Of a stretch of DNA of 64,000 nt, positions 6,089 to 57,105 are shown one piece after another. How positions within the stretch are numbered: position 1 is the first letter of the stretch; each line of letters starts with the position of its first letter. The DNA is taken from positions 23,265-87,264 of the forward strand of contig CAZAFB010000004.1 of assembly GCA_964484505.1 (NCBI GenBank). Direction: 5' to 3'. The notes beneath the pieces were generated by a model. It saw only the letters and a list, made by a program, of their open reading frames with translations, was not told the origin of the DNA and made no database searches. Source of the DNA: an uncultured Bdellovibrionales bacterium (GTDB lineage: Bacteria; Patescibacteriota; Minisyncoccia; Moranbacterales; GWC2-37-73). The translations under genes and the position numbers were made by a program.

Positions 6089-6196
6089 TCAAAAAATGCA
6101 AAACAAAAAACCAGATGCATATAACCGGGCTTATAATTTACTTTTAAAGAGCTTTTTGCTATAATTGAAGCATAAATAATCTTTTTATTTAAATAC

Positions 6197-40141: not shown

Positions 40142-40309
40142 TTATTTATTGCTGGTTTTGAGACATTTGCTGCAAGCTTTCACTTTCTTGCCGTCGATCT
40201 TCTTGCTTTGCAGATTGATCTTGAAAGTCCTCTTGGTCGCAATATTGGAGTGGCTGCGCGAATTTCCAGTCTTAGTCCCGCGCCCACAGATTTGGCAGGT
40301 CTTACTCAT
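40142..40309 (-). CDS. rpmB: 50S ribosomal protein L28 (absent from the ORF track, 55 aa)
   Basis: Reverse translation MSKTCQICGRGTKTGNSRSHSNIATKRTFKINLQSKKIDGKKVKACSKCLKTSNK matches the L28 signature. Confidence 0.85.
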   Translation of the reverse strand: MSKTCQICGRGTKTGNSRSHSNIATKRTFKINLQSKKIDGKKVKACSKCLKTSNK

Positions 40310-40465
40310 TTCATTTAAAGCGCTAAATTGATTCGAGTCATTCAGGAAAATATTCCAATGCCCCTAATAAAAATAACGCGAATGTGCTGTTGATTTATTA
40401 CAGAAAGCATTGTAGCATTGATTAAGTGATTTGGCAAGAGAAACAGATAAACTTGTAATAACATT

Positions 40466-41155
40466 ATGTCTCAAGAAATTATCCTTATTGCATTCTATAT
40501 TGTAATTTTTCTTTATTCGGTCATCGTCCATGAGGTGATGCATGGCTTTGTAGCTCTTAAATTTGGCGATAGTACTGCTAAATATGCGGGTCGTCTGAAT
40601 TTGAATCCTGTAAAACACATCGATCCTTGGGGCTCTGTCGTGGTGCCGCTTCTGATGTATCTTACTTTCGGTTTTCCTTTCGGTTGGGCGAAGCCAGTGC
40701 CGTACAATCCATATAATCTTCGTGACCAAAAATGGGGGCCAGCATTAGTTGCTTTGGGCGGACCACTTTCCAACATAATTCTTGCTTTGGTGGCTGTGCT
40801 TGTAGCTAGAATAATTTCAATCCCCACACCTCTCAAGATTGAGATTGTACGCAATCTTAATGATTTTTCCAATCTCTCCACGGTTATTGCCGGCTCGGTA
40901 GGTTCAATCTTCTTTGCGTTGTTGATCATGATTGTTTTTTGGAACGTACTTTTGGCATTTTTTAATTTGATTCCTTTTCCTCCTCTGGATGGTTCTAAAA
41001 TTATTTTGGCAATTTTTCCAATCAAAACAGAGACCATGATTCTTCTTGAGAATCTAGGTTTTCTGCTTCTTTTGGTTTTTATCTTCGTTTTTTCCGGCCC
41101 CTTGGGCACTTTCCTCAACTTCATGCTCAACCTTTTCTTTTCTTTGGCACTGTAA
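40466..41155 (+). CDS. site-2 protease family (peptidase M50) membrane metalloprotease
   Basis: HEVMHG within a TM helix; polytopic. Confidence 0.6.
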   Translation: MSQEIILIAFYIVIFLYSVIVHEVMHGFVALKFGDSTAKYAGRLNLNPVKHIDPWGSVVVPLLMYLTFGFPFGWAKPVPYNPYNLRDQKWGPALVALGGPLSNIILALVAVLVARIISIPTPLKIEIVRNLNDFSNLSTVIAGSVGSIFFALLIMIVFWNVLLAFFNLIPFPPLDGSKIILAIFPIKTETMILLENLGFLLLLVFIFVFSGPLGTFLNFMLNLFFSLAL

Positions 41156-41360
41156 TTATCTCAAAGCTTTGTTTTAGAATTTTGGCGTTGTTGACATATT
41201 TCTTCAAATCGTTTATTATATTTTTGCTGGGTTTCCAGCTTAATTTAAGCCAATTTTTTGGCGGACCGCTCGTATTTTTTCGCCGAGTGCAGGCAAAAAG
41301 ATACGAAAGACAGAGCTGTTGCGGTTCGTACGTTTTTGTTATTCATAATTTAAAAGAGAC

Positions 41361-41783
41361 ATGCCAACAATAAATCAGTTAGTGAAGAGAAAAAGAAAGA
41401 CGGCTGCCAAGAAATCAAAATCTCCGGCAATGACCATGATTTTCAATTCACTCAAAAATCGTCCGAAAAAAACTACCAGCCCATATAAGCGCGGTGTTTG
41501 TATTAAGGTGGGAACAACAACTCCAAAAAAGCCTAACTCGGCGCTTCGCAAAATCGCTCGTGTGAGACTTACCAACGGAATGGAAGTAACAGCATATATC
41601 CCGGGTGTGGGACACAATTTGCAGGAACACTCCATTGTGATGATTCGCGGAGGACGCGTGAAAGATCTTCCGGGTGTACGCTATCACATCGTGCGCGGTG
41701 TTTTGGACAGCGCAGGAGTCGAAGGCAGAAACCGCGGACGCTCCAAATATGGTGCCAAGAGACCGAAAGCAAAGACGGAATAA
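41361..41783 (+). CDS. rpsL: 30S ribosomal protein S12 (with an N-terminal insertion of about 15 aa)
   Basis: PTINQLV...KRGVC...[10 protein letters not shown]...GHNLQEHS signature. Confidence 0.9.
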
Positions 41784-41882
41784 TATAAATCCCGAATCGA
41801 CACGAATTGTATCGCGAATAATCGCTAATACATTCGGGAATATTCGTGAAATAATTAGAGTAAATTAGCGATTCATAACATT
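41784..41882 (+). repeat. intergenic phased-repeat element
   Basis: CGAAT-type and TTAGNG-type repeats ending at the rpsG ATG. Confidence 0.6.
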
Positions 41883-42350
41883 ATGGCTAGAAGAAAAAGG
41901 ATATATGTAAAAAAATGGCAGGCGGATTCTCGTTATGGCAATCTGCTGGTCGGTCGTTTTATCGGGCAGCTTATGCGCGATGGCAAAAGAAGCACTGCCG
42001 AGAAAGTTATTTATGATGCTTTCGATGTAATTCACCAGCGCACCAAAAAAGGCGGACTTAATGTTTTTGAGCAAGCTATCAAGAACGTATCGCCGCTTTT
42101 GGAACTCAAATCAAAGCGCGTCGGTGGTGCCAACTATCAGGTGCCGATCCAGGTTAATGGCGAACGACGTCAGACTTTGGCGATCCGTTGGATTATGGCC
42201 GCTTGCAAATCCAAAAAAGGAAAGCGTATGGCTGAAAAACTTGCCGATGAACTGATTGATGCTTCAAATAAAGTTGGCTCCGCAATGAAAAAGCGTGAAG
42301 ACGTGCATCGCATGGCAGATGCCAACAAGGCATTCGCGCACTTCGCGTAG
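41883..42350 (+). CDS. rpsG: 30S ribosomal protein S7
   Basis: S7 family sequence. Confidence 0.9.
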   Translation: MARRKRIYVKKWQADSRYGNLLVGRFIGQLMRDGKRSTAEKVIYDAFDVIHQRTKKGGLNVFEQAIKNVSPLLELKSKRVGGANYQVPIQVNGERRQTLAIRWIMAACKSKKGKRMAEKLADELIDASNKVGSAMKKREDVHRMADANKAFAHFA

Positions 42351-42590
42351 TTTCTACGAAGTACGAACATTTACGAATGTACGAAAACAGAGAATAGCAA
42401 TTTAAAAGGCTGAATTTGAAGTTTCAATTCAATTATAAATGTCTAAATTTTAAAACATTTAGCATTTAGTAAATTAAAATTCATTTCAAATTTAAAATTT
42501 TAAACTTAAAATTATTCTAGCTGTTGTATCTTGGTTATTTGCAAAATATTTTTTAGTTTCAATCAATAAGAAAATATATTAAACAAACTT

Positions 42591-44669
42591 ATGGCATCTG
42601 ATATTTCCAAACTACGCAATATCGGTATTATCGCCCATATCGATGGAGGGAAGACTACTACGACGGAACGCATTTTGTTCTACACCGGAATCACTCACAA
42701 GATTGGTGAAGTGCATGAAGGTGAGGCGACCATGGACTGGATGGAACAGGAACGCGAGCGCGGTATTACCATCACTTCCGCTGCAACCAAATGTGAGTGG
42801 AAAGGTCATCCGATCAACATCATTGACACCCCGGGACACGTGGACTTCACTGTGGAAGTGGAGCGCTCTTTGCGTGTGCTTGATGGTGCGGTGGTTATTT
42901 TCGACGGCAAAGAAGGTGTGGAGCCGCAGTCTGAAACCGTGTGGCGCCAAGCTGATAAATACAATGTGCCTCGTATCTGCTTTGTAAACAAAATCGACAA
43001 GGAAGGTGCGGATTTCAACTTCGTGCTCGGTTCTATTTGGAATCGTTTAACTCCAAACGCTTTGGCGTTGCAAATGCCAATCGGTGAGCGCGGTGATTTT
43101 TCCGGTGTGGTCGATTTGATCAAAATGAAAGCCTACAAATTTGAAGGCGCGATGGGTGAAAATGTTATTGAATATGAAATCCCTGCTGAGCTTTTGGATC
43201 AAGCAAAAGAATGGCGTGAAAAAATGGTGGAAAGAATTTCCGAAACGGATGACGCGCTGACAGAAAAATTTTTGAATGGCGAAGAAATTTCCGAAGCGGA
43301 ACTCAAAACCGCGCTTCGCAATGCTGTGATTGCAGTTAAGCTGGTTCCTGTATTCACTGGAACAGCTCTTCGCAACAAGGGTGTGCAGTTGGTACTTGAT
43401 GCGGTTGTTGATTATTTGCCAAGCCCGATTGACATTCCGGCTGTTAAAGGAACAAATCCGAAAAACAACGAAGAGGTGGAAAGAAAAGCTGATGACACCG
43501 AACCATTTTCCGCACTTGCTTTCAAAGTGGCAACCGATCCTTTTGTGGGTCAACTTACATTCTTTCGCGTATATTCAGGAACGCTGAAAGCTGGTTCATA
43601 TGTAATGAATTCAACCAAAGGTGAAAAGGAACGCATCGGACGTATTTTGCAGATGCATGCCAATCATCGTGAAGAAATCGATGAAATCACTGCTGGTGGA
43701 ATCGGCGCGTTGGTAGGAATGAAAAATACCACGACTGGTGATACGCTTTGTGATGAACAAAAACAAGTGGTTTTGGAAAACATCGTGTTTCCGGAACCTG
43801 TTATTGATATCGCGGTGGAACCAAAGACGAAAGCTGATCAGGAAAAGATGGGCATGGCTCTTCGCAAATTGGCTCAAGAAGATCCGACACTCAGGCTGCG
43901 CACTGATGAAGAGAGCGGTCAGACAATCATTTCCGGAATGGGCGAGCTTCATTTGGATATCATTATCGACCGCATGAAACGTGAGTTCAAGGTTGAAGCA
44001 AACATTGGTCAGCCGCAAGTGGCATATCGTGAAACGATCAAGACTGCTGCGCAAGCCGAAGGAAAATATGTTCGTCAATCCGGAGGACGCGGACAATATG
44101 GTCATTGCTGGCTCAAAGTTGAACCTCAGGAAGAAGCTGGCAAGGGATTTGAATTCGTTGATGAAATCAAAGGTGGTGTTATTCCGCAAGAATATATTCC
44201 TGCTGTGCAAAAGGGTGCCAAGGAAGCTTTGGAAAACGGTGTCATTGCCGGTTATCCGATGGTTGACGTGAAAGTAACACTTTATGATGGTTCCTTCCAT
44301 GAAGTGGACTCTTCGGAAGCTGCTTTCAAAATTGCCGGATCTTTGGCGATCCAGGAAGCAACCAAACGCGCCAATCCTGTTTTGCTTGAACCGATGATGA
44401 GCGTGCAGGTGATCACCCCGGAACAATTCATGGGTGATGTGGTGGGTGATGTAAATTCCCGTCGCGGTATGATCAAGGAAATCAATGATCGCGGAGAAGG
44501 CAATGCGCGCGTGAAAGAAATCAACGCGGAAGTGCCGTTGGCTTCGATGTTCGGCTATGCGACGCAGCTTCGCTCCATGACGCAAGGACGCGCCAGCTAT
44601 TCCATGGAATTCGGACACTACAGCGAAGTGCCGAAGTCGATTGCGGAGACGATCGCTTCTAAAAAATAG
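42591..44669 (+). CDS. fusA: elongation factor G
   Basis: [23 protein letters not shown], full EF-G domain series. Confidence 0.95.
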
Positions 44670-44740
44670 AACTCGCGAATTTGCACGAATAAAATTCAAC
44701 GAATAATCGCGAATAGGATTCATTCGATACTATAGGGAAG

Positions 44741-44765
44741 GCGGCCTCGAGAGAGGCCGCTTTTT
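44741..44765 (+). terminator. rho-independent terminator (GCGGCCTC-gaga-GAGGCCGC plus T5)
   Basis: Perfect 8-bp stem; twin of the hairpin at 45584. Confidence 0.8.
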
Positions 44766-44766
44766 C

Positions 44767-45555
44767 TTGTCCGAATTGATAGATGGGTTTAGACTTGGGG
44801 GAGATGGGTATAGGTATGATGAGTGGAGGAATTTTGAAGTAGTTATTGAGAAGGCAAGGATTGCCCGTGAGAGAGCCAGGCAAAAGGCCTTGGACCATTT
44901 TGTTGGCGCCAACAAAATGGTTGATCTGGGGTCAGGAAGCAAGCGGGAGGTGAATGATATTATGCTCACCCGTTACGCTTGCTATCTCATTGCCCAAAAT
45001 GGAGATCCGCGAAAGAATGAAATTGCTTTCGCTATGACCTATTTTGCAGTGCAGACCAGAAAGCAAGAAATAGTCGAGCAGCGATTGGCAGAGTGGGAGC
45101 GCGTGCAAGCGCGGGAAAAATTATTGCTTTCAGAAAAAGAACTTTCGGGAGTTTTGTTTGAGCGCGGGGTTGATAGTCAGGGATTCGCTCGCATTCGCAG
45201 CAAAGGCGATGCGGCATTATTTGGTGGTTATACCACACAAGATATGAAAAACCGTTTGGGTGTGCCGGACAAAAGACCATTAGCTGATTTCTTGCCATCG
45301 GTGACGATTAAAGCCAAAGACTTGGCAAATGAAATTACCAATCATAATGTCAAAACCAACAAGGCACTTCAGGGAGAAGTCATCATCACGGGTGAACATG
45401 TGAAAAACAATCGCAATATGCGTGAAATGTTGGGCAAGAGCGGAATTGAACCGGAAAACTTACCACCAGAAGAAGATGTAAAAAAGCTTGGGAGAAAATT
45501 GAAATCAGAGGATAGAAAATTACCAAGGAATGCGAGCAAAATAAAACAAAGTTAA
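44767..45555 (+). CDS. DinD-like DNA-damage-inducible / phage-associated protein, apparently lacking the usual N-terminal region
   Basis: WRNF, DHFVGANKMVDLGSGSKRE, LTRYACYLIAQNGDPRK, TYFAVQTRKQE, FGGYTTQD resemble E. coli DinD; only a TTG start sits directly after the terminator. Confidence 0.5.
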   Translation: MSELIDGFRLGGDGYRYDEWRNFEVVIEKARIARERARQKALDHFVGANKMVDLGSGSKREVNDIMLTRYACYLIAQNGDPRKNEIAFAMTYFAVQTRKQEIVEQRLAEWERVQAREKLLLSEKELSGVLFERGVDSQGFARIRSKGDAALFGGYTTQDMKNRLGVPDKRPLADFLPSVTIKAKDLANEITNHNVKTNKALQGEVIITGEHVKNNRNMREMLGKSGIEPENLPPEEDVKKLGRKLKSEDRKLPRNASKIKQS

Positions 45556-45583
45556 CTTCAAATTGGAATATAAGTGAGTTACG

Positions 45584-45609
45584 GCAGCCTCGAGAGAGGC
45601 TGCTTTTTT
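45584..45609 (+). terminator. rho-independent terminator (GCAGCCTC-gaga-GAGGCTGC plus T6)
   Basis: Differs from the 44741 hairpin by one compensatory base-pair change. Confidence 0.8.
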
Positions 45610-45865
45610 AGTGAAAGAAAATGGGGTATTGACCGGTATATAATAATGGGTATATATTCATAATATATTCCACATTAAGAATTTATATGTAGTCCGCCAT
45701 TTTTCCGAATCAATTTCTGTGAAGGATAAAGTTTGATTCGCGGGTTTCGACTTCGTCTTGCACTTGGTTAACATGGAATCAATGCGAGAAAAATCGGCGG
45801 ACGCTCAAATTTGTAGCAAAATTTTTTAAAAATTTTGACAAATTTGGCGAAGGGAGGTGATATTT

Positions 45866-46120
45866 ATGCCAAAACAAGACGGAACAGGACCAAGAGGAAT
45901 GGGTCCGATGACCGGTCGGGGAATGGGTCCATGCGCAGGAGCATATGGTCCGGGACTCGGCTTGGGTCGCGGATATGGTCGCGCGATGTGCGGCTGGTTC
46001 TATCGCCAATATCGGGAAATGCCCAAAGAAGAACGCGCGCAAATTCTGAAAGAAGAAATTGAAGATCTCAAAGGAGAATTGGAAATGGCGGAAAAAGAAC
46101 TGGCCGAATTGGAGAAATAG
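45866..46120 (+). CDS. DUF5320-like small protein (Gly/Pro-rich N-terminus, C-terminal coiled coil)
   Basis: MPKQDGTGPRGMGPMTGRGMGPCAG; SD AGGGAGG 9 nt upstream. Confidence 0.5.
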   Translation: MPKQDGTGPRGMGPMTGRGMGPCAGAYGPGLGLGRGYGRAMCGWFYRQYREMPKEERAQILKEEIEDLKGELEMAEKELAELEK

Positions 46121-46272
46121 CGGAAACGACCTTTCTCCTTCTTCATCCCAAGAGGAAGGAGGAGGTTGTTTCTGGCAGTGGTGATATAATGGAAATATGG
46201 CGGGATGATGGCATGCTGCGGATTATATTGCTATGCATTGTGTTAATGCAATAATATTTTAATGAAAAATGA

Positions 46273-46794
46273 ATGGAGAGATGTAGCGCCAAATTTATTA
46301 CTGTTTCCTTAATTGCCACACCCATGGTTTTGCTATGGGTGGAATCTGCGCAAGCGGTTTGTCCGGTTTGCACTATTGCTGTTGGGGCAGGGGTTGGTCT
46401 TTCCCGTTGGCTAGGAATTGACGATACAATAACCGGATTGTGGATAGGCGGACTTACGGTTTCGATGATAATGTGGACGTTGAATTGGTTGCAAAAGAAA
46501 AAGTATATTTTCAGGGGAAAAGAAATTTTGGTAAGTCTGGCATATTATGTATTCATAGTTGTTCCTTTATATCGAATGGAAATCATGGGCCATCCTTATA
46601 ATACGCTTTGGGGAGTGGATAAATTATTGCTCGGCATAATTATTGGCAGCACCTTTTTCTTTGTTGGTGGCGTTTGGTATTATTATCTCAAGAAGAAAAA
46701 TGACGGTCATACCTATTTTCCGTTTCAAAAAGTTGTGATGCCCGTGGCGCCGTTAGTGGTTCTAAGTGTTGTTTTTTATTTATTAACAAAATAA
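46273..46794 (+). CDS. hypothetical membrane protein
   Basis: Several TM helices. Confidence 0.4.
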   Translation: MERCSAKFITVSLIATPMVLLWVESAQAVCPVCTIAVGAGVGLSRWLGIDDTITGLWIGGLTVSMIMWTLNWLQKKKYIFRGKEILVSLAYYVFIVVPLYRMEIMGHPYNTLWGVDKLLLGIIIGSTFFFVGGVWYYYLKKKNDGHTYFPFQKVVMPVAPLVVLSVVFYLLTK

Positions 46795-46798
46795 GATA

Positions 46799-47365
46799 AT
46801 GGAAAACAAAATAAAAAATCTCAGTGAATTCGTGGAAAAAATCGATCAGATGAAAAAACAGGACAAGATGGACCTTTCTTCCGATCAAGATCTGAGCATT
46901 GCGATTATGAATCTTGTCAGTATTGAAGAACATTTTTTCTTTACGGCGGAAAAGACAGGCAAGGATGAATATCTCGACTTGCTTCAAGAAGTGCGAAAAA
47001 TGAGAGGGGAATTGCTTCGTAAGATAATTAAGGAATATGAGGGGGAGGTATGGTGTATTTCCAAACATCTTTTGGCAGCCTCGATGCGCTTGATGGAAGT
47101 GGGTACGAAGCAGCAGGGAATGGGTAATAAGGAACAGGCGAAAGAAATGTTTCAAAAGTCCTATGATTTGTATGGAATGTTTTGGGCGCTCAACATGAAA
47201 CTCATAAATTCCAATGATGTGAAAAAGGCAGGCGGGATTGAAATCGGGGAGGGGATCAAAAAGATTGATGAAAACGCACTCAACAGACATGATAAAAATC
47301 CGGAAGGGTTTACGGGGAAATTAAGAGATTTGGTTAGGAGGGCGATTGATTGTTGCATAGAGTAA
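46799..47365 (+). CDS. hypothetical protein
   Basis: ORF tightly following the previous gene. Confidence 0.4.
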   Translation: MENKIKNLSEFVEKIDQMKKQDKMDLSSDQDLSIAIMNLVSIEEHFFFTAEKTGKDEYLDLLQEVRKMRGELLRKIIKEYEGEVWCISKHLLAASMRLMEVGTKQQGMGNKEQAKEMFQKSYDLYGMFWALNMKLINSNDVKKAGGIEIGEGIKKIDENALNRHDKNPEGFTGKLRDLVRRAIDCCIE

Positions 47366-47393
47366 GGTTGAATTTTTCTTAAGTATTTTTTCT

Positions 47394-48482
47394 TTGGCTG
47401 TAGCGATATATTTTAAAAATAGCAATAATGAGATGAAAGAAAAAGTTGCCATATTATCATTGATTGTGAATGCCTTGCTTGCCGGAGGAAAGATTGCCGT
47501 CGGGTTGTTTTCCGGTTCCGCGGCTGTTTTGGCTGAAGGAGTCCATTCTTTTACAGATATATTTTCTTCAGCTATCGGTTATGTTGGTATCAGGACTTCC
47601 CAAAAGCCTGCCGATCGGCAGCATCCGTATGGTCACTATAAGTTTGAAGTTTTGTCCGGTGTTGTTATTACTATTATTCTTTTAGCGACGGGCCTTGGAA
47701 TTATCTACGATGCTTATCAAGAATTTCTGGATCCGAAGAAAATCAACGTAGGTTATCTGGCTTTCGGGGTAATGCTGTTTTCAGCGGTTATAAATGAAAT
47801 TATGGCCAGAATTAAAATTAGCATCGGCAAGGAGGAAAATTCAATAAGTCTTCTCTCGGACGGATTTCATTCCAGAATTGACGTGTTTTCTTCGCTGGCG
47901 GTTTTGGGAGGATTGTTTTTAGTCAGTTATTGGATTTATGCCGATTCGATTCTAGCATTGTTGGTTGGGATTTATATTATCAAAGAGTCATTTTCGTTGG
48001 GTAAAGAAGCAGTTGATTCCTTGCTTGATGTTTCAGCAGGAGATGAAATAGAAGAAGAAATAAAAAAGATTGCCAAAAGGGAAAATGTCGAATTGGCATC
48101 ACTCAAGACGCAGAAAAAAGGTTCGATAGTTACTGCGAATCTGGAAATACGTCTTCCAAGTGTTCTCAAGCTGGAAGAGGCTACCAAGATAGCCGACGCT
48201 TTGAAAGACAGGCTTGTTGGTGGCATAGAAAATTTGCAGTATGTGGTTATTCAGATAGTCAGCCATGATGTGGAAAGGAGTTTTTACAAGCCGACTTTCG
48301 GCAGAAGTTTTGGTTGGCAAAGAAGGGGAAGATTTGCAAAAGTAGATAAGAGTGCTGCTGGCTTGGGGCCTGACGGACATTGCGTTTGTCCTCAATGTGG
48401 TTATTCCATTAAACACAAGAGAGGTGTTCCCTGTTCGTCAATCAAGTGCTCCCATTGCAATATAAATTTAGAAAGAAAATAA
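47394..48482 (+). CDS. cation diffusion facilitator (CDF) transporter with a C-terminal Cys-rich Zn-ribbon tail
   Basis: HSFTDIFSS...HPYGHYKFE motifs; tail CVCPQCG...CSHC. Confidence 0.75.
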   Translation: MAVAIYFKNSNNEMKEKVAILSLIVNALLAGGKIAVGLFSGSAAVLAEGVHSFTDIFSSAIGYVGIRTSQKPADRQHPYGHYKFEVLSGVVITIILLATGLGIIYDAYQEFLDPKKINVGYLAFGVMLFSAVINEIMARIKISIGKEENSISLLSDGFHSRIDVFSSLAVLGGLFLVSYWIYADSILALLVGIYIIKESFSLGKEAVDSLLDVSAGDEIEEEIKKIAKRENVELASLKTQKKGSIVTANLEIRLPSVLKLEEATKIADALKDRLVGGIENLQYVVIQIVSHDVERSFYKPTFGRSFGWQRRGRFAKVDKSAAGLGPDGHCVCPQCGYSIKHKRGVPCSSIKCSHCNINLERK

Positions 48483-48483
48483 T

Positions 48484-48759
48484 ATGACCAGACCAAGAAT
48501 GTGCCGAAGATTAAGATTTCGACCGAAAGCCCACTATTTCAAACCGCAAGGAATTCCCATGAGTTTTCTGGAAGAAGTCTCACTTTCGCGCGAGGAACTG
48601 GAGGCGATCAAGCTCAAAGATTTTGACGGTCTCGAGCAAACAGAGGCGGCGGAAAAAATGCAAACTTCCCAAAGCACGTTTCAACGCATCCTATCTTCCG
48701 CGCACAAAAAAGTTGCGGAAGCAATCGTGAAAGGCAAGGCTCTTAGGATTGAGAATTAA
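48484..48759 (+). CDS. DUF134 (UPF0251) predicted DNA-binding protein
   Basis: MTRPRMCRRL...FKPQGIP...LEEVSLSREELEAIKLKDFDGLEQTEAAEKM matches the family pattern. Confidence 0.75.
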   Translation: MTRPRMCRRLRFRPKAHYFKPQGIPMSFLEEVSLSREELEAIKLKDFDGLEQTEAAEKMQTSQSTFQRILSSAHKKVAEAIVKGKALRIEN

Positions 48760-48768
48760 TCTAAATTT

Positions 48769-49278
48769 ATGGACATCTTTTCACATGGGCTGTGGGGTGG
48801 GGTGGCTTTTGGTCGCAAGAGTAAAAAGAATTTTTGGACTGCTTTTGCAATCGGCATGATGCCGGATCTTTTGGCTTTTGCTTTGCCTTTTGTTGGTCGC
48901 ATCTCAGGCGCTGCCGAGGGCCCGGCATATTCCAACGGTCATCCCGATGCCGCTTCGATTCCGCAATATGTCTATCACATCTATAATTTTTCCCATAGTC
49001 TAATAATATTCTTGGCCGTGTTTTTGATTGTTTGGGCAGTGCGCAAACAATCCCAGTGGCTTTTGGGCGCGTGGGGTCTGCATATCCTTGTCGACATTCC
49101 AACGCACAGCTCCAACTTTTTCCCCACGCCATTTCTTTGGCCGCTTTCCAGCTATCACGTCAACGGCATCCAATGGGGCACTCCGATCATTTTCATCCCC
49201 AACCTCATTCTCCTGGCCACGGCCTATTTAATCTGGGGCATATCCTACTGGCGCAAAAAAAGATTGAAAAATAAATAG
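48769..49278 (+). CDS. membrane-bound metal-dependent hydrolase-like protein (DUF457/YdjM-like)
   Basis: N-terminal SHGLWGG...MMPDLL, polytopic. Confidence 0.45.
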   Translation: MDIFSHGLWGGVAFGRKSKKNFWTAFAIGMMPDLLAFALPFVGRISGAAEGPAYSNGHPDAASIPQYVYHIYNFSHSLIIFLAVFLIVWAVRKQSQWLLGAWGLHILVDIPTHSSNFFPTPFLWPLSSYHVNGIQWGTPIIFIPNLILLATAYLIWGISYWRKKRLKNK

Positions 49279-49301
49279 TTTAATTTTTTTAATTTATCCA
49301 T

Positions 49302-49469
49302 ATGGAAAAAATTAAGGTTGAGCAACATGGGTTCACTATGTTTTCGTGGTTTGCGGGCTGGTTGTTTACGGTTGGGTTTTTGCATTTGTCACTGGGCACA
49401 GGAATTTTGGCGATTGTGCTTTGGCCGTATTATTTGGGCGTGGCTGTCAGTGCCATGATTGGACGCTAA
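49302..49469 (+). CDS. small membrane protein (55 aa; absent from the ORF track)
   Basis: ATG, two hydrophobic helices, terminator downstream at 49585. Confidence 0.3.
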   Translation: MEKIKVEQHGFTMFSWFAGWLFTVGFLHLSLGTGILAIVLWPYYLGVAVSAMIGR

Positions 49470-49584
49470 TTACTGACAACTTACTAAAAATCACTAACTA
49501 CTAACTGCTAACTACAAAATACACGAGTCTGTAGTTGATTAAGAGTAAGTAATATAAGTAATAGTTATACAAGATTTTATAAGC

Positions 49585-49616
49585 CAGCTAGGAATTTTTC
49601 CTTAGCTGGTTTTTGT
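49585..49616 (+). terminator. intrinsic terminator
   Basis: CCAGCTAGG / CCTTAGCTGG stem plus T5. Confidence 0.6.
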
Positions 49617-49753
49617 TTGGAAAAGTTATCCACAGGGGAGGGGGTTGCAGTGATAATGGGGAAGTGATAAAATATCATCAAGAACGCGCAGAGCGTTCAA
49701 TAACTAATAATTTGACCCAGGTGTTAACCCGATGACTTGGGTCACTAAAAAAG

Positions 49754-49981
49754 ATGGAAAGTGCAAACCAGGAGAAAGTATTCTCCAAAATGCTTCGCGC
49801 CGGAGGCAAAAATTATTTTTTCGACGTGAAGCGCGCCATTAATGGCAAGAACTATCTGACAATTGCTGAATCGTACAAAAATCAAAAAGGCGAACAAGTG
49901 AGCAACCGCATCATGATCTTCAAAGATCATGCTGACAGCTTCGCTGAAACATTGAAAGAAGTGGAAGGATATCTGAAATAG
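49754..49981 (+). CDS. PUR-alpha-like nucleic-acid-binding protein (DUF3276)
   Basis: SKMLRAGGKNYFFDVKRA..GKNYLTIAES PUR repeat signature. Confidence 0.6.
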   Translation: MESANQEKVFSKMLRAGGKNYFFDVKRAINGKNYLTIAESYKNQKGEQVSNRIMIFKDHADSFAETLKEVEGYLK

Positions 49982-50050
49982 GGCGATATATCCGCGGGCA
50001 GCTGGCCAGCACTTATTGACGCAGCTGCCCGGTAGATATAAAATACTCAT

Positions 50051-50398
50051 ATGAAAAATACTATGAAAAATTCAACAAAAAAATCAGGAGAAAAAACTTT
50101 TGGCTTCAATGAAGTGATGTCATTGCTTGAATCCATGAATGATGGGATTAAAGTAATTTCCGAACAATATGGGGGAGTTGTTGCGCGTTTGGATAAAATT
50201 GATGATAGATTGGATAGAATGGAGACAAGAATGGATGGGGTAGAAACTAGATTGGACAACGTGGAAGTTAAGCTGGATAAGCTGCAAGATGACATGGTGG
50301 AAGTCAAATATGAACTCAAAAATAAAGTTGACAGGGATGAGTTCAAAAAACTGGAAAAACGCGTCGTGAAATTGGAACGACTCTCTTACTCGCACTGA
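50051..50398 (+). CDS. coiled-coil hypothetical protein with internal RLD/VET repeats
   Basis: RLDKIDDRLDRMETRMDGVETRLDNVEVKLDKL. Confidence 0.45.
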   Translation: MKNTMKNSTKKSGEKTFGFNEVMSLLESMNDGIKVISEQYGGVVARLDKIDDRLDRMETRMDGVETRLDNVEVKLDKLQDDMVEVKYELKNKVDRDEFKKLEKRVVKLERLSYSH

Positions 50399-50413
50399 TC
50401 TGAAAATATCTCA

Positions 50414-50445
50414 AACACCGACTGAGTAGTCGGTGTTTGTTTAAG
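50414..50445 (+). terminator. rho-independent terminator
   Basis: AACACCGACT-gagt-AGTCGGTGTT perfect 10-bp stem plus T-rich tract. Confidence 0.75.
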
Positions 50446-50468
50446 ACAAAAAATAATCGTTAAATCTG

Positions 50469-52094
50469 ATGCCAAAAACATATTTGCAAAAACATTTTAA
50501 TTTTGCAGACTTTCGTCCCGGTCAGAGGGAAATTGTGGAAGCTATCGTCGCCGGAAAAGATGTGGTGGCTCTGATGCCGACAGGAGGCGGCAAATCTTTG
50601 TGCTACCAACTTCCTGCGATCATGAGCGGGAAACTTTCAATCGTGATTTCACCGCTCATTGCGCTCATGAAAGATCAGGTGGATGCCCTCAATGCGCGCG
50701 GAATCGGTGCGACATATGTGAACAGCACGCTTACAAACGAAGAAAGTGCCAGACGGATGGATGATATTCGCAGTGGTAAAACAAAAATTTTGTATATAGC
50801 TCCCGAGCGTTTTGGTAGTAATGAATTCAGAAAAGAATTTTCTCAAATGGATGTGCATATGGTGGCTGTCGATGAAGCGCATTGTGTGTCGCAATGGGGA
50901 CATGACTTTCGTCCGGATTATTTGAAAATAAAACAATATATAAATCTGTTGAAAAATCGCCCGCTTGTTGCTGCGTTTACCGCTACGGCGACGCCGGAAG
51001 TTAAAGATGATATTATCGAACGTTTGGGGTTAGAAAATCCGCAAGTTTTTATCAGAGGATTTGACCGTCCCAATCTCAAGTTTTTCGTGCAAAAAGATCT
51101 CAAACCCAGAGAAAGACAAGCTGAACTGCTACGCGTTATCAAATCTTTGGAAGGAAGCGGCGTGGTATATGTGCTAACCAGAAAGTATACCGAGGAAATC
51201 GCTGCCGCACTGAACCAGTCCGGAATTTCTGCAGTGGCATATCATGCAGGAATCGACGGAGAAAAACGCAACAAAATCCAAAATGATTTTATGGAAAATC
51301 GCTACAAAGTTATTGTGGCGACGATTGCGTTCGGTATGGGTGTGGACAAAGCCGACATCCGCTATGTCATCCATTCGGGCATGCCGGCAAGTCTGGAAGG
51401 GTATTATCAAGAAGCGGGAAGAGCTGGGCGCGACGGAGAAACGGCATATTGTATTTTGCTGCACAGTAAACGCGACAACGCAACCCACAACTTTCTGATC
51501 CAATCGACGCGTCGAGACATGCTTGCGCAAGGAAAGAGTTGGGATGAAGCGACAAAGATTATCGACATAAAATATGACAGACTGGATAAAATAAAGGAAT
51601 ATGTGCATGGCGGGAGATGCCGGCGCAAAATTATTCTCAAATATTTTGATGATCCGGCGCACAAAACAAGTAAAGAAAACTGCAGTGGCTGCGATGTGTG
51701 CATGGGATGGAAAAGAAAAAATGAAGGAGAGTCTGGCGATTATGAAAACAAAAGCAGAAGGCGCAGGGAAGGATTGAGCGGAACTGTTTTGGAAACAGCC
51801 GGATATTATCAGAAAGGATATGACGTTGCCAAAATTGCCAAAATTCGCGGCTTGGGACTCTCGACTATTTTCGGGCACCTGATCGATTGGTATGAAAATG
51901 GCGGCGATTTCGATATTGGGGCGCATTTTTCGCCGCAAGAAGAAAAAATTATTTTAGCCGCAATTCAAAAAGCAGACAATGCAAAATTTCTCAGCTCCAT
52001 TAAGCAGCAGTTGCCCGAGAATATCGGTTACGAAAAAATAAGGATGGTGGTGGCAAAAAAGAAAAGAGATATTAAACAAAAAATTGTCAATTAA
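50469..52094 (+). CDS. recQ: RecQ-family ATP-dependent DNA helicase
   Basis: FRPGQREIVEA, PTGGGKSLCYQLPA, DEAH, Zn-binding Cys cluster. Confidence 0.85.
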   Translation: MPKTYLQKHFNFADFRPGQREIVEAIVAGKDVVALMPTGGGKSLCYQLPAIMSGKLSIVISPLIALMKDQVDALNARGIGATYVNSTLTNEESARRMDDIRSGKTKILYIAPERFGSNEFRKEFSQMDVHMVAVDEAHCVSQWGHDFRPDYLKIKQYINLLKNRPLVAAFTATATPEVKDDIIERLGLENPQVFIRGFDRPNLKFFVQKDLKPRERQAELLRVIKSLEGSGVVYVLTRKYTEEIAAALNQSGISAVAYHAGIDGEKRNKIQNDFMENRYKVIVATIAFGMGVDKADIRYVIHSGMPASLEGYYQEAGRAGRDGETAYCILLHSKRDNATHNFLIQSTRRDMLAQGKSWDEATKIIDIKYDRLDKIKEYVHGGRCRRKIILKYFDDPAHKTSKENCSGCDVCMGWKRKNEGESGDYENKSRRRREGLSGTVLETAGYYQKGYDVAKIAKIRGLGLSTIFGHLIDWYENGGDFDIGAHFSPQEEKIILAAIQKADNAKFLSSIKQQLPENIGYEKIRMVVAKKKRDIKQKIVN

Positions 52095-52211
52095 AAAACA
52101 TACCTCAAATCGACGGCCGTGAGTTCGTGTATAGTTTTGGTTATGATGTGATGGTTTGGACCTTGTGATGAACATAAAGGGAAAATTAATAATATGGATG
52201 AGGCGCAGGCA

Positions 52212-52240
52212 TTGACTAAACGGGGCGGGTTTGCTAAATT
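52212..52240 (+). promoter_or_regulatory. sigma70 promoter module copy 1 (TTGACT, 17-nt spacer, TAAATT, then conserved leader GCCGTGTTGGTTCTTATACAAT)
   Basis: About 50 bp nearly identical to 53721-53786. Confidence 0.6.
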
Positions 52241-52284
52241 GCCGTGTTGGTTCTTATACAATTTGACAAGGAGGAATGCAAAAA

Positions 52285-52878
52285 ATGAGCGAGAAAATAG
52301 TCCAGCTTGAAGGGGAAATCAAGGGCCTCCACTACAATCCGGTAATGGAACGTCATAGTTTCTCGAATTCCAGGACGGAGGAATTCTACAAACAGTTCTG
52401 GGAAATTCACGTGAAACAGGTCATCGAATTCAGTAGGCAGATGGCTGTGAAATACGGCGCCGATCTGGAAGTTGTGTGGCTTGCGGCTATTCTGCATGAT
52501 ATCGCACGTCTTGATGATTATGAACCTCATGATGTAATTGGATCGGAAACAGCCTACATGTTGCTGATTGAAAAAGGTTTCAAATATTCTTTGGCTGAGA
52601 AAGCCAAGGTTGCCATCTTGAGACATCGTTGCAAAGAATATGTTCCTGAAACACTGGAACAGAAAATCATTGCCACGGCTGATGCGATGGCTCACTTCAT
52701 CCCGCCGTTCTATTTCTGGATAGCCAAATATTCAAACAAAAGCTTTGAGGAAGTTCTGGAAAAGAACAAGGGGAAAATCGAGCGCGATTACAATGATAAG
52801 ATCTTTTTCGAAGATGAGAGGGTGTTGGTTTCGGGGCAGTATGAAATGTTGAAAAGCTGGTTTGGATATAAAATTTAG
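52285..52878 (+). CDS. HD-domain phosphohydrolase
   Basis: H...AILHDIARLDD; SD AAGGAGG. Start taken at the second ATG for correct SD spacing. Confidence 0.6.
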   Translation: MSEKIVQLEGEIKGLHYNPVMERHSFSNSRTEEFYKQFWEIHVKQVIEFSRQMAVKYGADLEVVWLAAILHDIARLDDYEPHDVIGSETAYMLLIEKGFKYSLAEKAKVAILRHRCKEYVPETLEQKIIATADAMAHFIPPFYFWIAKYSNKSFEEVLEKNKGKIERDYNDKIFFEDERVLVSGQYEMLKSWFGYKI

Positions 52879-52899
52879 CAAAGAAAAAGGAGACAAATC

Positions 52900-53532
52900 A
52901 TGCCAGATACTCCGAATGTGTTAGCTGCCAGAAATGCTGTTTTTGAAGTGGGAAAGGCGCGTATGAATTTGCGTATAGCCCTTGCCAATCTTTCGCTTGG
53001 AGAACTTGCCGAAGTTATCACTGAAGTGCATGCTTACAGTCCCGTCGTTATCAATATCGATTCCCAAATCTATAAAAAGAAAGGCGGGCTGGCTATTTTA
53101 AAGCCATGCGAAGATCTTAACCTGGGTATCGTTCTATGGTCAGCTCCGAAATTAACAATGATGGCTTCTTGGGAAACAGTTCCTGATTCTATTTGCGTGG
53201 ACTTCATGAGAAACAAAGTTTTTTTTGAGGTCTTTTCCGGAGGCAAAGGCAAGAGTATGGATAAGAAATTCGCCTGCATAGCAGAAGCTTGCAAAAGAAA
53301 CGGAATAAGGAACATATTTCTTTTAAATCCGGGAAATATGTGTCAGTTTTTTCGAAATACGGGAAACTGTGATATTGAAGTCACGGGAGTGGATGATTTT
53401 TTGGATATACTGAGCATGCATGTTGACCTGGGAGATCTTAAGCTTTCCTTTCTTGATTTTCAAAAAAGTACAGCATTGGAATTCCATGAATATATGCGCA
53501 AATGTGGGATACGAGACGATCTGGGGGTGTAA
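52900..53532 (+). CDS. hypothetical protein (210 aa), SD-led
   Basis: AAAGGAGACAAATC-ATG; no family recognised. Confidence 0.45.
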   Translation: MPDTPNVLAARNAVFEVGKARMNLRIALANLSLGELAEVITEVHAYSPVVINIDSQIYKKKGGLAILKPCEDLNLGIVLWSAPKLTMMASWETVPDSICVDFMRNKVFFEVFSGGKGKSMDKKFACIAEACKRNGIRNIFLLNPGNMCQFFRNTGNCDIEVTGVDDFLDILSMHVDLGDLKLSFLDFQKSTALEFHEYMRKCGIRDDLGV

Positions 53533-53576
53533 AGCTTAATTTATCCTTTTGATAATGTCTGGACTTACTTGAACAA

Positions 53577-53611
53577 CGACCTGTTGCTTAAATAGCACGG
53601 GTCGTTTTTTT
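53577..53611 (+). terminator. intrinsic terminator module copy 1 (part of a ~75-bp repeated unit)
   Basis: CGACCT / GGGTCG stem, 16-nt loop, T7; downstream GTTTGGATTTTTGGCTGGCGAAAAATGGCTTGAATAA repeated at 55240. Confidence 0.7.
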
Positions 53612-53723
53612 GTTTGGATTTTTGGCTGGCGAAAAATGGCTTGAATAAAGGGAAGAATATGGTTATATTTAACTCGCGATCCCGTTAAATGTGGTCCATT
53701 AAGTAGTTAAATTTAACAGGGCA

Positions 53724-53752
53724 TTGACTAAGTGCGGCAAGTTTGCTAAATT
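53724..53752 (+). promoter_or_regulatory. sigma70 promoter module copy 2
   Basis: TTGACT, 17-nt spacer, TAAATT and identical leader. Confidence 0.6.
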
Positions 53753-53817
53753 GCCGTGTTGGTTCTTATACAATTAAACATATTGATGCTGTGGATTTTG
53801 AGAGGAGGTGATAAAAG

Positions 53818-55179
53818 GTGATCAAGGGCATAAAAGCCGTAGTCGAAAGGGTTGTTTTAGATGGCCCGCATGGTCCATTTGTCATTACAACCTCAAAGGC
53901 GTTCACTGGCTCCGTGACGTTCTCCCTTGAACGTAACGTGTGGCAGGAACATGGGCACCCTGAACCTGGAGAAGTAGTTTTTCTTTACGAGCTTCGGGAA
54001 AAAAGACAGGGATGGAGAGCAAAAAAAGGACGGTACTGGAAACCGTCTGACGAGCAAACAGCACAGGAGGAAGAAATCATGGAAAGACTGATGTTTTCAC
54101 TCAAGAGACTTAGAAGCAAGTGGTTCCCCACGGAAGAAGACATGAAATGGAAAAGCTGGGTAGACTTCAAGTCCAGAGAAACAAGGGACTTGGTTAATCT
54201 TCTTTCCCAGAAGGTAAACGACATTTTCAAGAAACGAGCGCTATTTCTGCTGTTTGTACCTTCGGCAACAGTTAATCCTCTCTATTGGAAAGGAGACATC
54301 GGTAAGTTCTATCACGGGTTGGACATTCTCGACAAACTGACTCCTGATCTGCTGAGCTATGCAGCTGAGCTTGTCATGCAGTTTGTCACCGCTCTGAGTC
54401 CGGTGCACTGCGATCGGCCGAGGAACGTTGCCGAAGGCGGTGGTGGTATCATGATATATATGTCGATACCTGACAAATATCATGACGCGCTGTCGTTCTA
54501 CAACCGCTGTATACTGAAACTGTTGGCAAAGCTCCCTGCTGAGCAAGCAGAAAAGATCTTTCCGCTGTATTCCCTCAATGACATCTCAACATTCTGGAAT
54601 ATGGATACCGCCTCAGGATACAACCCTTTTCAGAACCTCATGTACTCCGATGACATCAACGAGAAATGGAAGAGGTTGGCTGACGGGAAGATGCGAGATA
54701 TAGTGCGCGCGGAAATTGAAGGAAAAGTAAAACCCAGAGAAGAGCATGAAGACGCTCTGCGCTGCTACTCCAGTTTTATTCAGAGGCAGTTCTATGGGTC
54801 CCATTACCCGAAGAAGTTGCTTGTCGAACAGGTGCAATTCCTCGTGGAAAACCTTCAACCGAATACACACCTCATCAACTGCTTCAATGTCATCAATTTC
54901 TTCGACCTTTTGTATGCAGATTCCCAAAAGGAACTTCGGCACAAAATCGCCAGATATACCGTCATGGAAAACATGGAGAAATACGGAAGGTTTCATGTTT
55001 ACGACACGGGAACGAGGCGGGCTGCAGAACAGATGCTCGAAGAGTTCGCTGATGATCAGGAACTTGCTGAAAAAGTTCGCGAACTTATAGCAGAAGGCGA
55101 AAGAAGACAGGCTGAAAACGCAGCTCATTATGCAGAAGAGAAAGAAGCGGAGAAAAGCATCCTTGCTGCAATGCAGTAA
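53818..55179 (+). CDS. hypothetical protein (453 aa), GTG start, SD-led, elevated GC
   Basis: GAGGAGGTGA SD; no family recognised; local GC visibly higher than the surroundings. Confidence 0.5.
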   Translation: MIKGIKAVVERVVLDGPHGPFVITTSKAFTGSVTFSLERNVWQEHGHPEPGEVVFLYELREKRQGWRAKKGRYWKPSDEQTAQEEEIMERLMFSLKRLRSKWFPTEEDMKWKSWVDFKSRETRDLVNLLSQKVNDIFKKRALFLLFVPSATVNPLYWKGDIGKFYHGLDILDKLTPDLLSYAAELVMQFVTALSPVHCDRPRNVAEGGGGIMIYMSIPDKYHDALSFYNRCILKLLAKLPAEQAEKIFPLYSLNDISTFWNMDTASGYNPFQNLMYSDDINEKWKRLADGKMRDIVRAEIEGKVKPREEHEDALRCYSSFIQRQFYGSHYPKKLLVEQVQFLVENLQPNTHLINCFNVINFFDLLYADSQKELRHKIARYTVMENMEKYGRFHVYDTGTRRAAEQMLEEFADDQELAEKVRELIAEGERRQAENAAHYAEEKEAEKSILAAMQ

Positions 55180-55204
55180 GGCGTGAAATCTCAAGCAGCA
55201 AGAG

Positions 55205-55239
55205 CGACCCGTTGCTTAAATAGCGTGGGTCGTTTTTTT
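55205..55239 (+). terminator. intrinsic terminator module copy 2
   Basis: CGACCC / GGGTCG perfect stem plus T7; same flanking sequence as copy 1. Confidence 0.75.
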
Positions 55240-55302
55240 GTTTGGATTTTTGGCTGGCGAAAAATGGCTTGAATAATGGGAAAATAGGTGTCGGGGCGAC
55301 TC

Positions 55303-55330
55303 TTGACATATTTTTTTATTCGTGTAAAAT
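55303..55330 (+). promoter_or_regulatory. sigma70 promoter for tuf (TTGACA, 16-nt spacer, TAAAAT)
   Basis: Direct reading of the sequence. Confidence 0.55.
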
Positions 55331-55484
55331 GGCTTATGTATCTTAATTTCCTGCAAAGGAATTTTTGAATTTGCGAAAAAAAGCAGATTCGAATATAATA
55401 AAAAGAAGCTGTTTTTGTAATCAATTATCTTAAATGTTCGCAAGTCGCAGACAAAAGGTTTGTGCGGCAGGCGAAAAAACAACT

Positions 55485-56678
55485 ATGGCAGCAGAACAAT
55501 TCGTACGCAGCAAACCACACGTCAATGTGGGAACCATCGGACATGTTGACCACGGAAAGACCACTCTTACCGCGGCTATTTTGCATGGTCTGAGTCTCAA
55601 AGGTTTGGCCAAGGAAAAGAATGTCAATGAAATCGACAACGCACCGGAAGAAAGAGAGCGCGGAATCACCATTGCTACTTCCCACTGCGAATACGAATCA
55701 GACACTCGTCACTATGCACACGTAGACTGTCCAGGTCATGCTGACTATATCAAAAACATGATCACTGGTGCTGCTCAGATGGATGGTGCTATCCTCGTGG
55801 TTAGCGCAACTGACGGTCCTATGCCTCAGACTCGCGAGCACATCTTGCTTGCAAAGCAGGTCGGTGTTCCTTCAATCGTTGTTTTCATCAACAAAGTTGA
55901 CATGGTTGATGATCCTGAACTTATCGACTTGGTTGAAGCTGAAGTTCGCGAACTGCTTTCCAAATATGAATTCGACGGTGACAATGCCAAGGTTGTTCGC
56001 GGATCTGCCGTGAAAGCTTTGGAAGCTGGCAGCGCTGATGATGAAAGCGTAAAGTGTATCTATGAACTTATCGCAGGGTTGGATGAACAAATTCCTGAAC
56101 CTGTTCGTGAAGTTGACAAGCCGTTTTTGATGCCTATTGAAGATATTTTCTCAATCGAAGGTCGCGGAACCGTGGTTACTGGACGCATTGAACGCGGAAT
56201 AATCAACATCAACGAAGAGGTGGAAATCGTGGGACTTAAACCTACCACCAAAACCGTAGTTACCGGAATTGAAATGTTCAACAAGTCTCTTGACAAAGGA
56301 CAAGCTGGTGACAACGCAGGACTTTTGCTTCGCGGTGTTAAGAAAGAAGATGTTGAACGCGGTCAGGTTCTTGCTAAACCGGGTTCAATCACTCCTCATA
56401 CTGAATTTGAAGGGCAGATCTATATTTTGACCAAAGAGGAAGGTGGACGTCACACCCCATTCTTCAAAGGATACAAACCACAGTTCTACATCCGTACAAC
56501 CGATGTTACCGGTGAGGTTTTTCTTCCGGAAGGAACTGAAATGGTTATGCCTGGAGACACCATTAATTTGAACATCAAATTGATTGCTCCGGTTGCTATG
56601 GAAGATGGAATGCGCTTCGCTATCCGCGAAGGAGGACGTACAGTTGGTGCAGGTGCCGTAACTAAGATTATCAAATAG
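55485..56678 (+). CDS. tuf: elongation factor Tu
   Basis: [26 protein letters not shown]. Start set at [16 protein letters not shown] rather than the track's 55434. Confidence 0.95.
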
Positions 56679-56775: not shown

Positions 56776-57105
56776 ATGGCAGCTAAAAAACCAGAAACAA
56801 CATCGACGAGAATCAGGATTAAGATCAAAGCATATGACAATAAAGTCATTGATCAATCCGCAAGAAAGATCGTTGAAACTGCGGAACGCAGCGGAGCGAA
56901 AATAACCGGTCCGGTGCCGCTTCCTACGGAAATTCATAAAGTGACGGTGAACAAGTCAACTTTTGTGCATAAGGATGCTCGTGAGCAATATGAGATGCGC
57001 GTACACAAGCGTTTGATCGATATCACTGATCCTAGCGCAAAGACGATTGAAAACCTGACTAGCTTGGATTTGCCAGCAGGTGTTGACGTGGAAATCAAGA
57101 TGTGA
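56776..57105 (+). CDS. rpsJ: 30S ribosomal protein S10
   Basis: IRIKIKAYD...GPVPLPT signature. Confidence 0.9.

Follow-up and report, generated by a model that had tools for sequence, protein, structure and literature searches.

A 5′-truncated dinD gene and a second fusA-type terminator at the left edge of a strain-variable fusA-tuf island in an uncultivated Moranbacteria genome

Two nearly identical terminator-like hairpins bracket a DinD-type gene in the genome of an uncultivated bacterium of the Moranbacteria (Patescibacteria), which raises the question of whether this gene arrived as a mobile cassette that duplicated its target or whether the gene and the two hairpins have a more ordinary history. 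We addressed this question using the window, i.e. the whole stretch of 64,000 nucleotides (64 kb) that was analysed. A sequence-only reading of this DNA had described twin hairpins differing by one compensatory base pair around a gene apparently without its N-terminal region, and had proposed that this is either a cassette whose insertion left a signature resembling a target duplication or a 5′-truncated prophage remnant. Both hairpins are present exactly as described. The first one (hp1), GCGGCCTC-gaga-GAGGCCGC, lies at 44741-44760 and is followed by T5, and the second one (hp2), GCAGCCTC-gaga-GAGGCTGC, lies at 45584-45603 and is followed by T6. With the preceding G, they read GGCGGCCTCgagaGAGGCCGC plus T5 (44740-44765) and GGCAGCCTCgagaGAGGCTGC plus T6 (45583-45609). 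The two copies differ by a single compensatory G:C to A:T pair and by one T of the tail, and are spaced by 843 bp (start to start) in an otherwise AT-rich region of the genome.

Both hairpins exhibit the architecture of intrinsic terminators, a GC-rich stem-loop followed by a T-tract at the 3′ end of a gene on its coding strand, with folding energies of −27.3 kcal/mol (z = −4.5) for hp1 and −17.8 kcal/mol (z = −3.6) for hp2. A terminator scan listed hp2 and omitted hp1, probably because the stem of hp1 is able to extend into the T-tract, as in its fold. Searching for the 20-nt core with up to 3 mismatches returned hp1 and hp2 as the sole sites in the window, where shuffled sequences are expected to yield none. 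For the complete 27-mer (GGCRGCCTCGAGAGAGGCYGCTTTTT), the two copies stand at 1 and 2 mismatches from the ancestral form and the next-best site of the window at 9, while the terminator-like hairpins found elsewhere in the region are unrelated in sequence to hp1 and hp2. The 27-mer, which occurs twice in the 64 kb of the window and once at each locus of the relatives, is thus not a common terminator within the window. Nor is the hairpin a widespread element: the 20-nt core gave 86 scattered matches in 596 Gb of species-representative genomes, most of them from unrelated taxa rich in GC, often inside coding sequences and with none from relatives, the scan of metagenome contigs gave no match, and viral contigs contained one chance match within unrelated sequence. 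All variants pair fully across five hairpin sequences, with GC, GU and AU at one pair and UA and UG at another; some assemblies of the same strain carry A44754G, which converts a U-A pair into U·G. Only pairing-preserving substitutions were observed among these five sequences, yet the covariation statistic did not exceed the shuffle control. Pairing in all variants is therefore consistent with selection on the stem, short of proof. Rfam models returned nothing meaningful over positions 44000-50500.

The gene that precedes hp1 is fusA (42591-44669, + strand), which codes for the 692-aa elongation factor EF-G, as judged from the open reading frame and from the EF-G Pfam domains of the identical gene in L095. 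Homologues of its product are EF-G proteins of Moranbacteria, 85-100% identical, and place the organism in this group. Within fusA, five substitutions in 22 nt (44417-44438) separate the window from L096, L113 and L001 in otherwise identical surroundings, and look like a short gene-conversion or recombination patch. hp1 (44740-44765, + strand) consists of a G, an 8-bp stem, a GAGA loop and T5, and lies 71 nt past the fusA stop codon. The related contig L001 has the same gene order as the window, namely an M50 peptidase gene, rpsL, rpsG, fusA, a hairpin, then a dinD gene of 282 codons, and in L113, from a sister sample, dinD likewise occupies this site behind the same terminator of fusA; both contigs contain one hairpin. 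The third relative, L111, has a fusA gene about 80% identical at the nucleotide level and no dinD. In all three relatives, the fusA terminator is a G·U form, GCGGCCTC..GAGGCTGC / GGCGGCCTCGAGAGAGGCTGCTTTTT, one base away from hp1; at this wobble site, which is pair 3 of the 8-bp stem (pair 4 when nine pairs are numbered), hp1 carries G-C and hp2 carries A-U. The DNA around hp1 is 97-99% identical to L001 and L113, and about 35 nt on its 3′ side are conserved with L111 (p = 0.001). This ancestral fusA 3′ flank, CTTGT..AAATTGAT..ATGGG, common to the dinD-less L111, adjoins hp1 and not hp2. Given that all three relatives have the hairpin behind fusA and that L111 also shares its 3′ flank, hp1 is the orthologous fusA terminator, and it is predicted to be an ordinary Rho-independent one. 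The second hairpin is absent downstream of dinD in L001 and L113.

The open reading frame between the hairpins (44767-45555) begins with a TTG start and codes for 262 aa. Its product matches the DinD profile NF008573 with 294.8 bits (E = 6.7e-88; cutoff 242), over profile positions 38-286 of 288 only, and its match to Bro-N is confined to profile positions 44-88 of 96 with 17.9 bits, below the Pfam cutoff of 25.6 bits. By comparison, the full-length protein P0002 of L001 (282 aa), the nearest full-length relative among the matches listed, covers NF008573 positions 1-286 and reaches 41.7 bits with Bro-N. Because the profile match begins at position 38 of NF008573 and the Bro-N match is partial and sub-cutoff, the N-terminal region is truly missing, as had been suspected. 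The segment derived from dinD (44815-45555, + strand), delimited by NF008573 and by alignment with L001, comprises codons 37-282 and the stop codon in an intact frame, devoid of the native start, ribosome-binding site (RBS) and promoter. It shares 87.9% nucleotide and 93% amino acid identity with dinD/P0002 of L001, from which it differs in the alignment by 36 missing residues. The database search yielded at least 8000 homologues. Among the 119 non-self matches listed, 112 are 280-288 aa long, 4 are shorter and 5 are longer; every one of the non-self matches listed covers just 88-94% of the query and leaves its first ~16 residues unaligned, and homologues of the 262-aa type with the same start came, among the matches listed, from the same strain only. 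A frameshift hiding the N-terminus was rejected: translation of all three upstream frames revealed no trace of the missing region, and the gap between fusA and the open reading frame measures only 97 nt. On sequence grounds, we thus classify this open reading frame as a 5′-truncated gene of the DinD family.

Comparison with L001 reveals how the 5′ end was lost. By blastn, window positions 40143-44800 correspond to L001 1257-5915 (97.2% identity) and positions 44815-45558 to L001 6109-6852 (87.9%), placing the breakpoints at 44800/44815 in the window and 5915/6109 in L001. Between them, the 193 bp of L001 5916-6108 are replaced by 14 unrelated bases (44801-44814, + strand), a junction filler also delimited by a three-way alignment. 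In L001 and L113, these 193 bp contain a palindromic promoter region including TATAAT, the RBS, the ATG and codons 1-36, and the net deletion of 179 bp removes about half of the Bro-N domain. The gene is therefore a 5′-truncated remnant, as one of the two earlier proposals had it. Upstream of the junction, positions 44767-44800 (+ strand), which hold the TTG start and the first 11 codons, are homologous to non-coding DNA in L001 (5882-5915), in L113 and in the dinD-less L111, and the N-terminus encoded by the open reading frame therefore corresponds to translated intergenic DNA. A single nucleotide separates the T5 tail of hp1 from the TTG, the sole GAGG-like sequence near the TTG lies inside the 3′ arm of the hairpin, and hp1 is preceded by the one promoter-like site in the vicinity (44680-44707). 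With the promoter-bearing 193 bp gone, the remnant has no promoter of its own.

The −10 region of dinD is covered by a palindrome, TAGTGATA..TATCACTA (e.g. GGTGATATAATATCA...GGTATCACT), in three unrelated Patescibacteria contexts: L001 (5940-5975), L105 (about 5950-5985) and L107 (about 5955-5990). It is deleted in the window (at 44801-44814), where no copy of the motif was found with up to 3 mismatches. As a candidate operator, this palindrome could mediate LexA-type control or autoregulation by the Bro-N protein.

At least 8 independent assemblies, obtained from different samples and 99.7-100% identical, show the same structure, which is therefore not an assembly artefact. Compared to the full-length gene of L001, dN/dS is 0.046 (dS about 0.7), and the frame of the remnant remains open over 247 codons without polymorphism seen across assemblies. 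For the most part, the low dN/dS stems from the period preceding the deletion; together with the intact frame, it indicates that the deletion is recent relative to the age of the allele. The remnant is most likely a promoterless pseudogene that was recently silenced. Alternatively, it may continue to function through read-through of the terminator, which stays conceivable because of the intact frame, the low dN/dS and the uniformity across assemblies. L113 carries a distinct lesion in dinD, an internal deletion of 512 bp (L113 3588-3598 corresponds to L001 6216-6727), independent of that of the window, and dinD therefore appears dispensable in the population. Inactivation of dinD by independent deletions in co-occurring strains suggests an ongoing loss of the gene from this population.

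Across Moran-, Gribaldo-, Falkow-, Azam- and Magasanikbacteria and one Omnitrophica metagenome-assembled genome, DinD homologues share 72-84% amino acid identity among the matches listed, whereas EF-G proteins within Moranbacteria alone are just 81-97% identical. Such conservation across distant classes of Patescibacteria suggests either horizontal spread or unusually strong constraint. The dinD loci of L105 and L107 lie in unrelated contexts and lack such hairpins, and the notion that dinD travels elsewhere as a hairpin-bounded unit was thus rejected. The Moranbacteria contig L105 contains two genes of the Bro-N/DinD type (1759-2583 and 6001-6852), 3.4 kb apart. One of them sits between DUF3276 and RecQ genes, a pair also found in the island of the window at about 49.8-52.1 kb.

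The remnant belongs to a larger unit. Since tuf (55434-56678), rpsJ (56776-57105) and rplC only follow from position 55434 onwards, 10.7 kb of accessory genes split fusA from tuf in the str operon. This accessory island (44670-55433, unstranded), delimited by the flanking open reading frames and by the gene content of relatives, is strain-variable and contains genes for a DUF5320 protein, two hypothetical proteins, a cation efflux protein, DUF134, YdjM, DUF3276, RecQ, an HD protein and further hypothetical proteins, several of the hypotheticals having no Pfam match. In L001 and L113, fusA is followed by dinD and by genes for a 123-aa protein, His_Phos and YdjM; in L111 by five accessory genes including those for a 618-aa protein, His_Phos, NUDIX and YdjM, then by tuf, rpsJ and rplC; in L109 by genes for 173-aa and 188-aa proteins, then Fur and FeoAB; and in L110 by the defence genes Fic, RhuM and MmeI. 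The content of the fusA-tuf gap differs in every relative examined, and the gap resembles a hot spot of integration in Moranbacteria. None of the genes called in the island codes for an integrase, transposase or recombinase, and the segment bracketed by hp1 and hp2 contains no gene besides the dinD remnant. The island likewise has no phage genes, its sole phage link being PHROG 8036, to which no function is assigned. With chromosomal accessory genes between fusA and tuf as its neighbours, the reading of the dinD fragment as a prophage remnant finds no support.

A part of this island differs sharply from its surroundings. Relative to L113, which shares 99.4% identity with the window on the left side, there is no difference over 44439-44757, then 4 differences within 44758-44781, including the 3′ arm and T-run of hp1, and then a breakpoint. 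Past this breakpoint, the window is 80-88% identical to L113 or has no homology with it up to about 49925, from where no differences remain. As delimited by these differences and by blastn, the divergent tract (44758-49925, unstranded; about 5.2 kb) comprises the dinD remnant, hp2 and the genes for DUF5320, the 173-aa and 188-aa proteins, cation efflux, DUF134 and YdjM. Because a tract of 80-88% identity sits in DNA that is 99-100% identical to L113, we infer that it was exchanged as an island variant by recombination.

Within this tract, hp2 (45583-45609, + strand), the A-U form with a T6 tail, lies 27 nt past the dinD stop codon. It is identical at 26 of 27 positions to the G·U-form fusA terminator of L001, and this identity extends to the G before the stem and to the T6 tail. 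Such identity far exceeds that of any other site in the window, and hp2 is therefore a homologous copy rather than a convergent lookalike, in agreement with the earlier view of the hairpins as duplicated copies. It thus represents a paralogue of the fusA-type terminator and is confined to this island variant. Duplication extending beyond the hairpin was rejected, as the flanks of hp1 and hp2 are otherwise unrelated: in shuffle tests, upstream similarity gave p = 0.64, and the marginal downstream signal (p = 0.036) is due to one 9-mer. There are just two copies of this 9-mer, ATGGGTATA, in the window, one at 44804-44812 in the junction filler and one at 45646-45654, 43 nt past hp2, and a 10-mer, ATGGGTATAT, also begins the 123-aa gene that follows dinD in L001. 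The repeated 9-mer may represent templated filler, junction microhomology or chance.

Homology between the window and L001 stops 3 nt past the dinD stop codon, and directly 3′ of hp2 lies a promoter-like TTGACC-18-TATATT (45629-45658). hp2 is thus placed exactly between the end of dinD and the promoter-like site of the next block. This site and the conserved motif GGGTATATATTCATAATAT of the DUF5320/cation-efflux block (together 45629-45667, + strand) were identified by scanning and by a match to the distant relative L116, in which a 32-nt segment (94% identity) lies upstream of the DUF5320 gene and a similar motif precedes the 173-aa gene. GGGTATATATTCATAATAT is found beside a TTGAC −35-like box at 45636-45667 in the window and at about 545-580 and 1934-1965 in L116, and may be an operator of a metal-homeostasis block comprising DUF5320, cation efflux and DUF134. 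Exact look-up of the DUF5320 protein returned the same strain only, and in a homologue search for a donor the 173-aa protein gave a best non-self match of 76% identity, located on L116, a contig that stops short of fusA. No lineage carrying a full-length form of this dinD allele or the same island variant was found in these look-up and homologue searches. P0255, a paralogue of the 173-aa membrane protein encoded at 46273-46794 in the window, is 72% identical to it and is probably located on the window's own contig.

How, then, did a second fusA-type terminator come to lie behind dinD? Integration of dinD at the fusA terminator, duplicating the 27 nt of the hairpin in the manner of an att or target site and followed later by 5′ truncation, would account for the close bracketing of dinD by the two copies and for the end of the L001 homology just past the dinD stop codon. 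It would also suit a gene that moves, as indicated by homologues of 75-84% amino acid identity in unrelated Patescibacteria contexts, and an insertion hot spot located 3′ of fusA. Nevertheless, we hold this scenario to be unlikely. L001 and L113 hold dinD at the same site with one hairpin, and a simple target duplication misfits the locus because the ~35 nt of ancestral fusA flank sit between hp1 and dinD instead of following hp2. Moreover, the called island genes include no integrase or transposase, the dinD genes of L105 and L107 have no such hairpins, and a precise empty site was not found, L111 having one hairpin and no dinD but other genes downstream. The target-duplication-like signature put forward at the outset thus finds no support. 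A quite improbable alternative is that the DUF5320/cation-efflux block once lay directly 3′ of fusA in a different lineage and that an illegitimate joining placed it behind dinD, together with hp2 as the fusA terminator of that lineage. The homologous 173-aa and 188-aa genes directly follow fusA in L109, hp2 stands at the exact boundary between the dinD homology and the DUF5320 promoter module, and it is one step away from the G·U form of the fusA terminator. Yet the 27 nt upstream of hp2 are unlike the 3′ flanks of fusA (p = 0.64-0.84), the fusA terminator of L109 is different, and no donor emerged from the homologue searches. In addition, the divergence of dinD equals that of the remaining tract (88% identity, compared to 97-99% in the surroundings), suggesting that dinD and the block arrived together.

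That hp1 and hp2 are independent terminators on which chance or selection conferred the same stable stem and GNRA loop seems to us extremely improbable. C-GAGA-G tetraloops on GC stems are intrinsically favoured, and the 20-nt core does occur sporadically in unrelated GC-rich genomes, as the 86 stretches in 596 Gb attest. Convergence would nonetheless have to produce 26 of 27 identical positions, the G before the stem and the T6 tail among them, in two copies 843 bp apart in an AT-rich region; no other terminator of the window comes closer than 9 mismatches. It is also very doubtful that the fusA terminator hairpin serves as a hot spot or recognition site for recombination, through which modules such as dinD, the DUF5320/metal block and others are swapped into the fusA-tuf gap of Moranbacteria. 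If it did, hairpin copies would mark module boundaries and would point to a recombinase-independent or as yet unrecognised cassette exchange in CPR bacteria.

The locus is probably best explained by a decayed dinD, a strain-variable island and a displaced copy of the fusA terminator rather than by a mobile cassette. The locus represents the left edge of the strain-variable fusA-tuf island of a member of the Moranbacteria, at which the replacement of 193 bp by 14 bp stripped dinD of its promoter/operator, RBS, start and first 36 codons, and the residual frame happens to stay open through former intergenic DNA up to the TTG that follows T5. Lacking its own promoter and preceded by a terminator of −27 kcal/mol, the remnant would be silent, and hp2 would end any dinD transcript and insulate the DUF5320/cation-efflux block. 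The divergent tract, with the dinD remnant, hp2 and the next ~4 kb, would have arrived by recombination, and the deletion may have occurred before or after this arrival. The terminator could have been copied either by local unequal or illegitimate recombination or through a module bringing the fusA terminator of another lineage. The biology of the locus is ordinary: a dinD that has most likely become a pseudogene borders an accessory island subject to recombination, and lies between the fusA terminator and its displaced copy. This result corrects the annotation of a public ‘protein’ of 259-262 aa, which is a promoterless fragment with an N-terminus drawn from intergenic DNA, and provides a worked example, base by base, of gene decay and island exchange in the str operon of an uncultivated CPR bacterium. 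The copied terminator further illustrates that short regulatory hairpins can duplicate during island rearrangement.

Each component of the locus both resembles and departs from known systems. E. coli DinD is described as regulating RecA filaments (Uranga et al. 2011, as cited in PMC4457935). Like members of the DinD family (NF008573), the remnant scores above the curated cutoff, and it shares 93% amino acid identity with a full-length Moranbacteria DinD encoded at the same site. It differs from them by the loss of the first ~37 profile positions, which correspond to the N-terminal half of Bro-N, of the palindromic promoter and of the native start, and thus does not have the full-length architecture of ~280 aa with a complete Bro-N domain. 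The two near-identical 27-nt direct repeats that bracket one gene recall att or target-site repeats; unlike in such systems, no recombinase and no empty/occupied pair were found, relatives carry a single repeat, and the ancestral flank adjoins the left copy. With their GC-rich stems of 8-9 bp, GAGA tetraloops, T5-T6 tails and strain variants that preserve pairing, hp1 and hp2 resemble intrinsic terminators, and termination at both is predicted, although near-identical copies on two neighbouring genes are unusual. Finally, like recombining accessory islands, the locus combines variable gene content with flanks of 99-100% identity around 5 kb of DNA that either is 80-88% identical or lacks homology; it is distinguished from them by the lack of mobility genes among those seen and by its site between fusA and tuf, within a str operon that is otherwise conserved.
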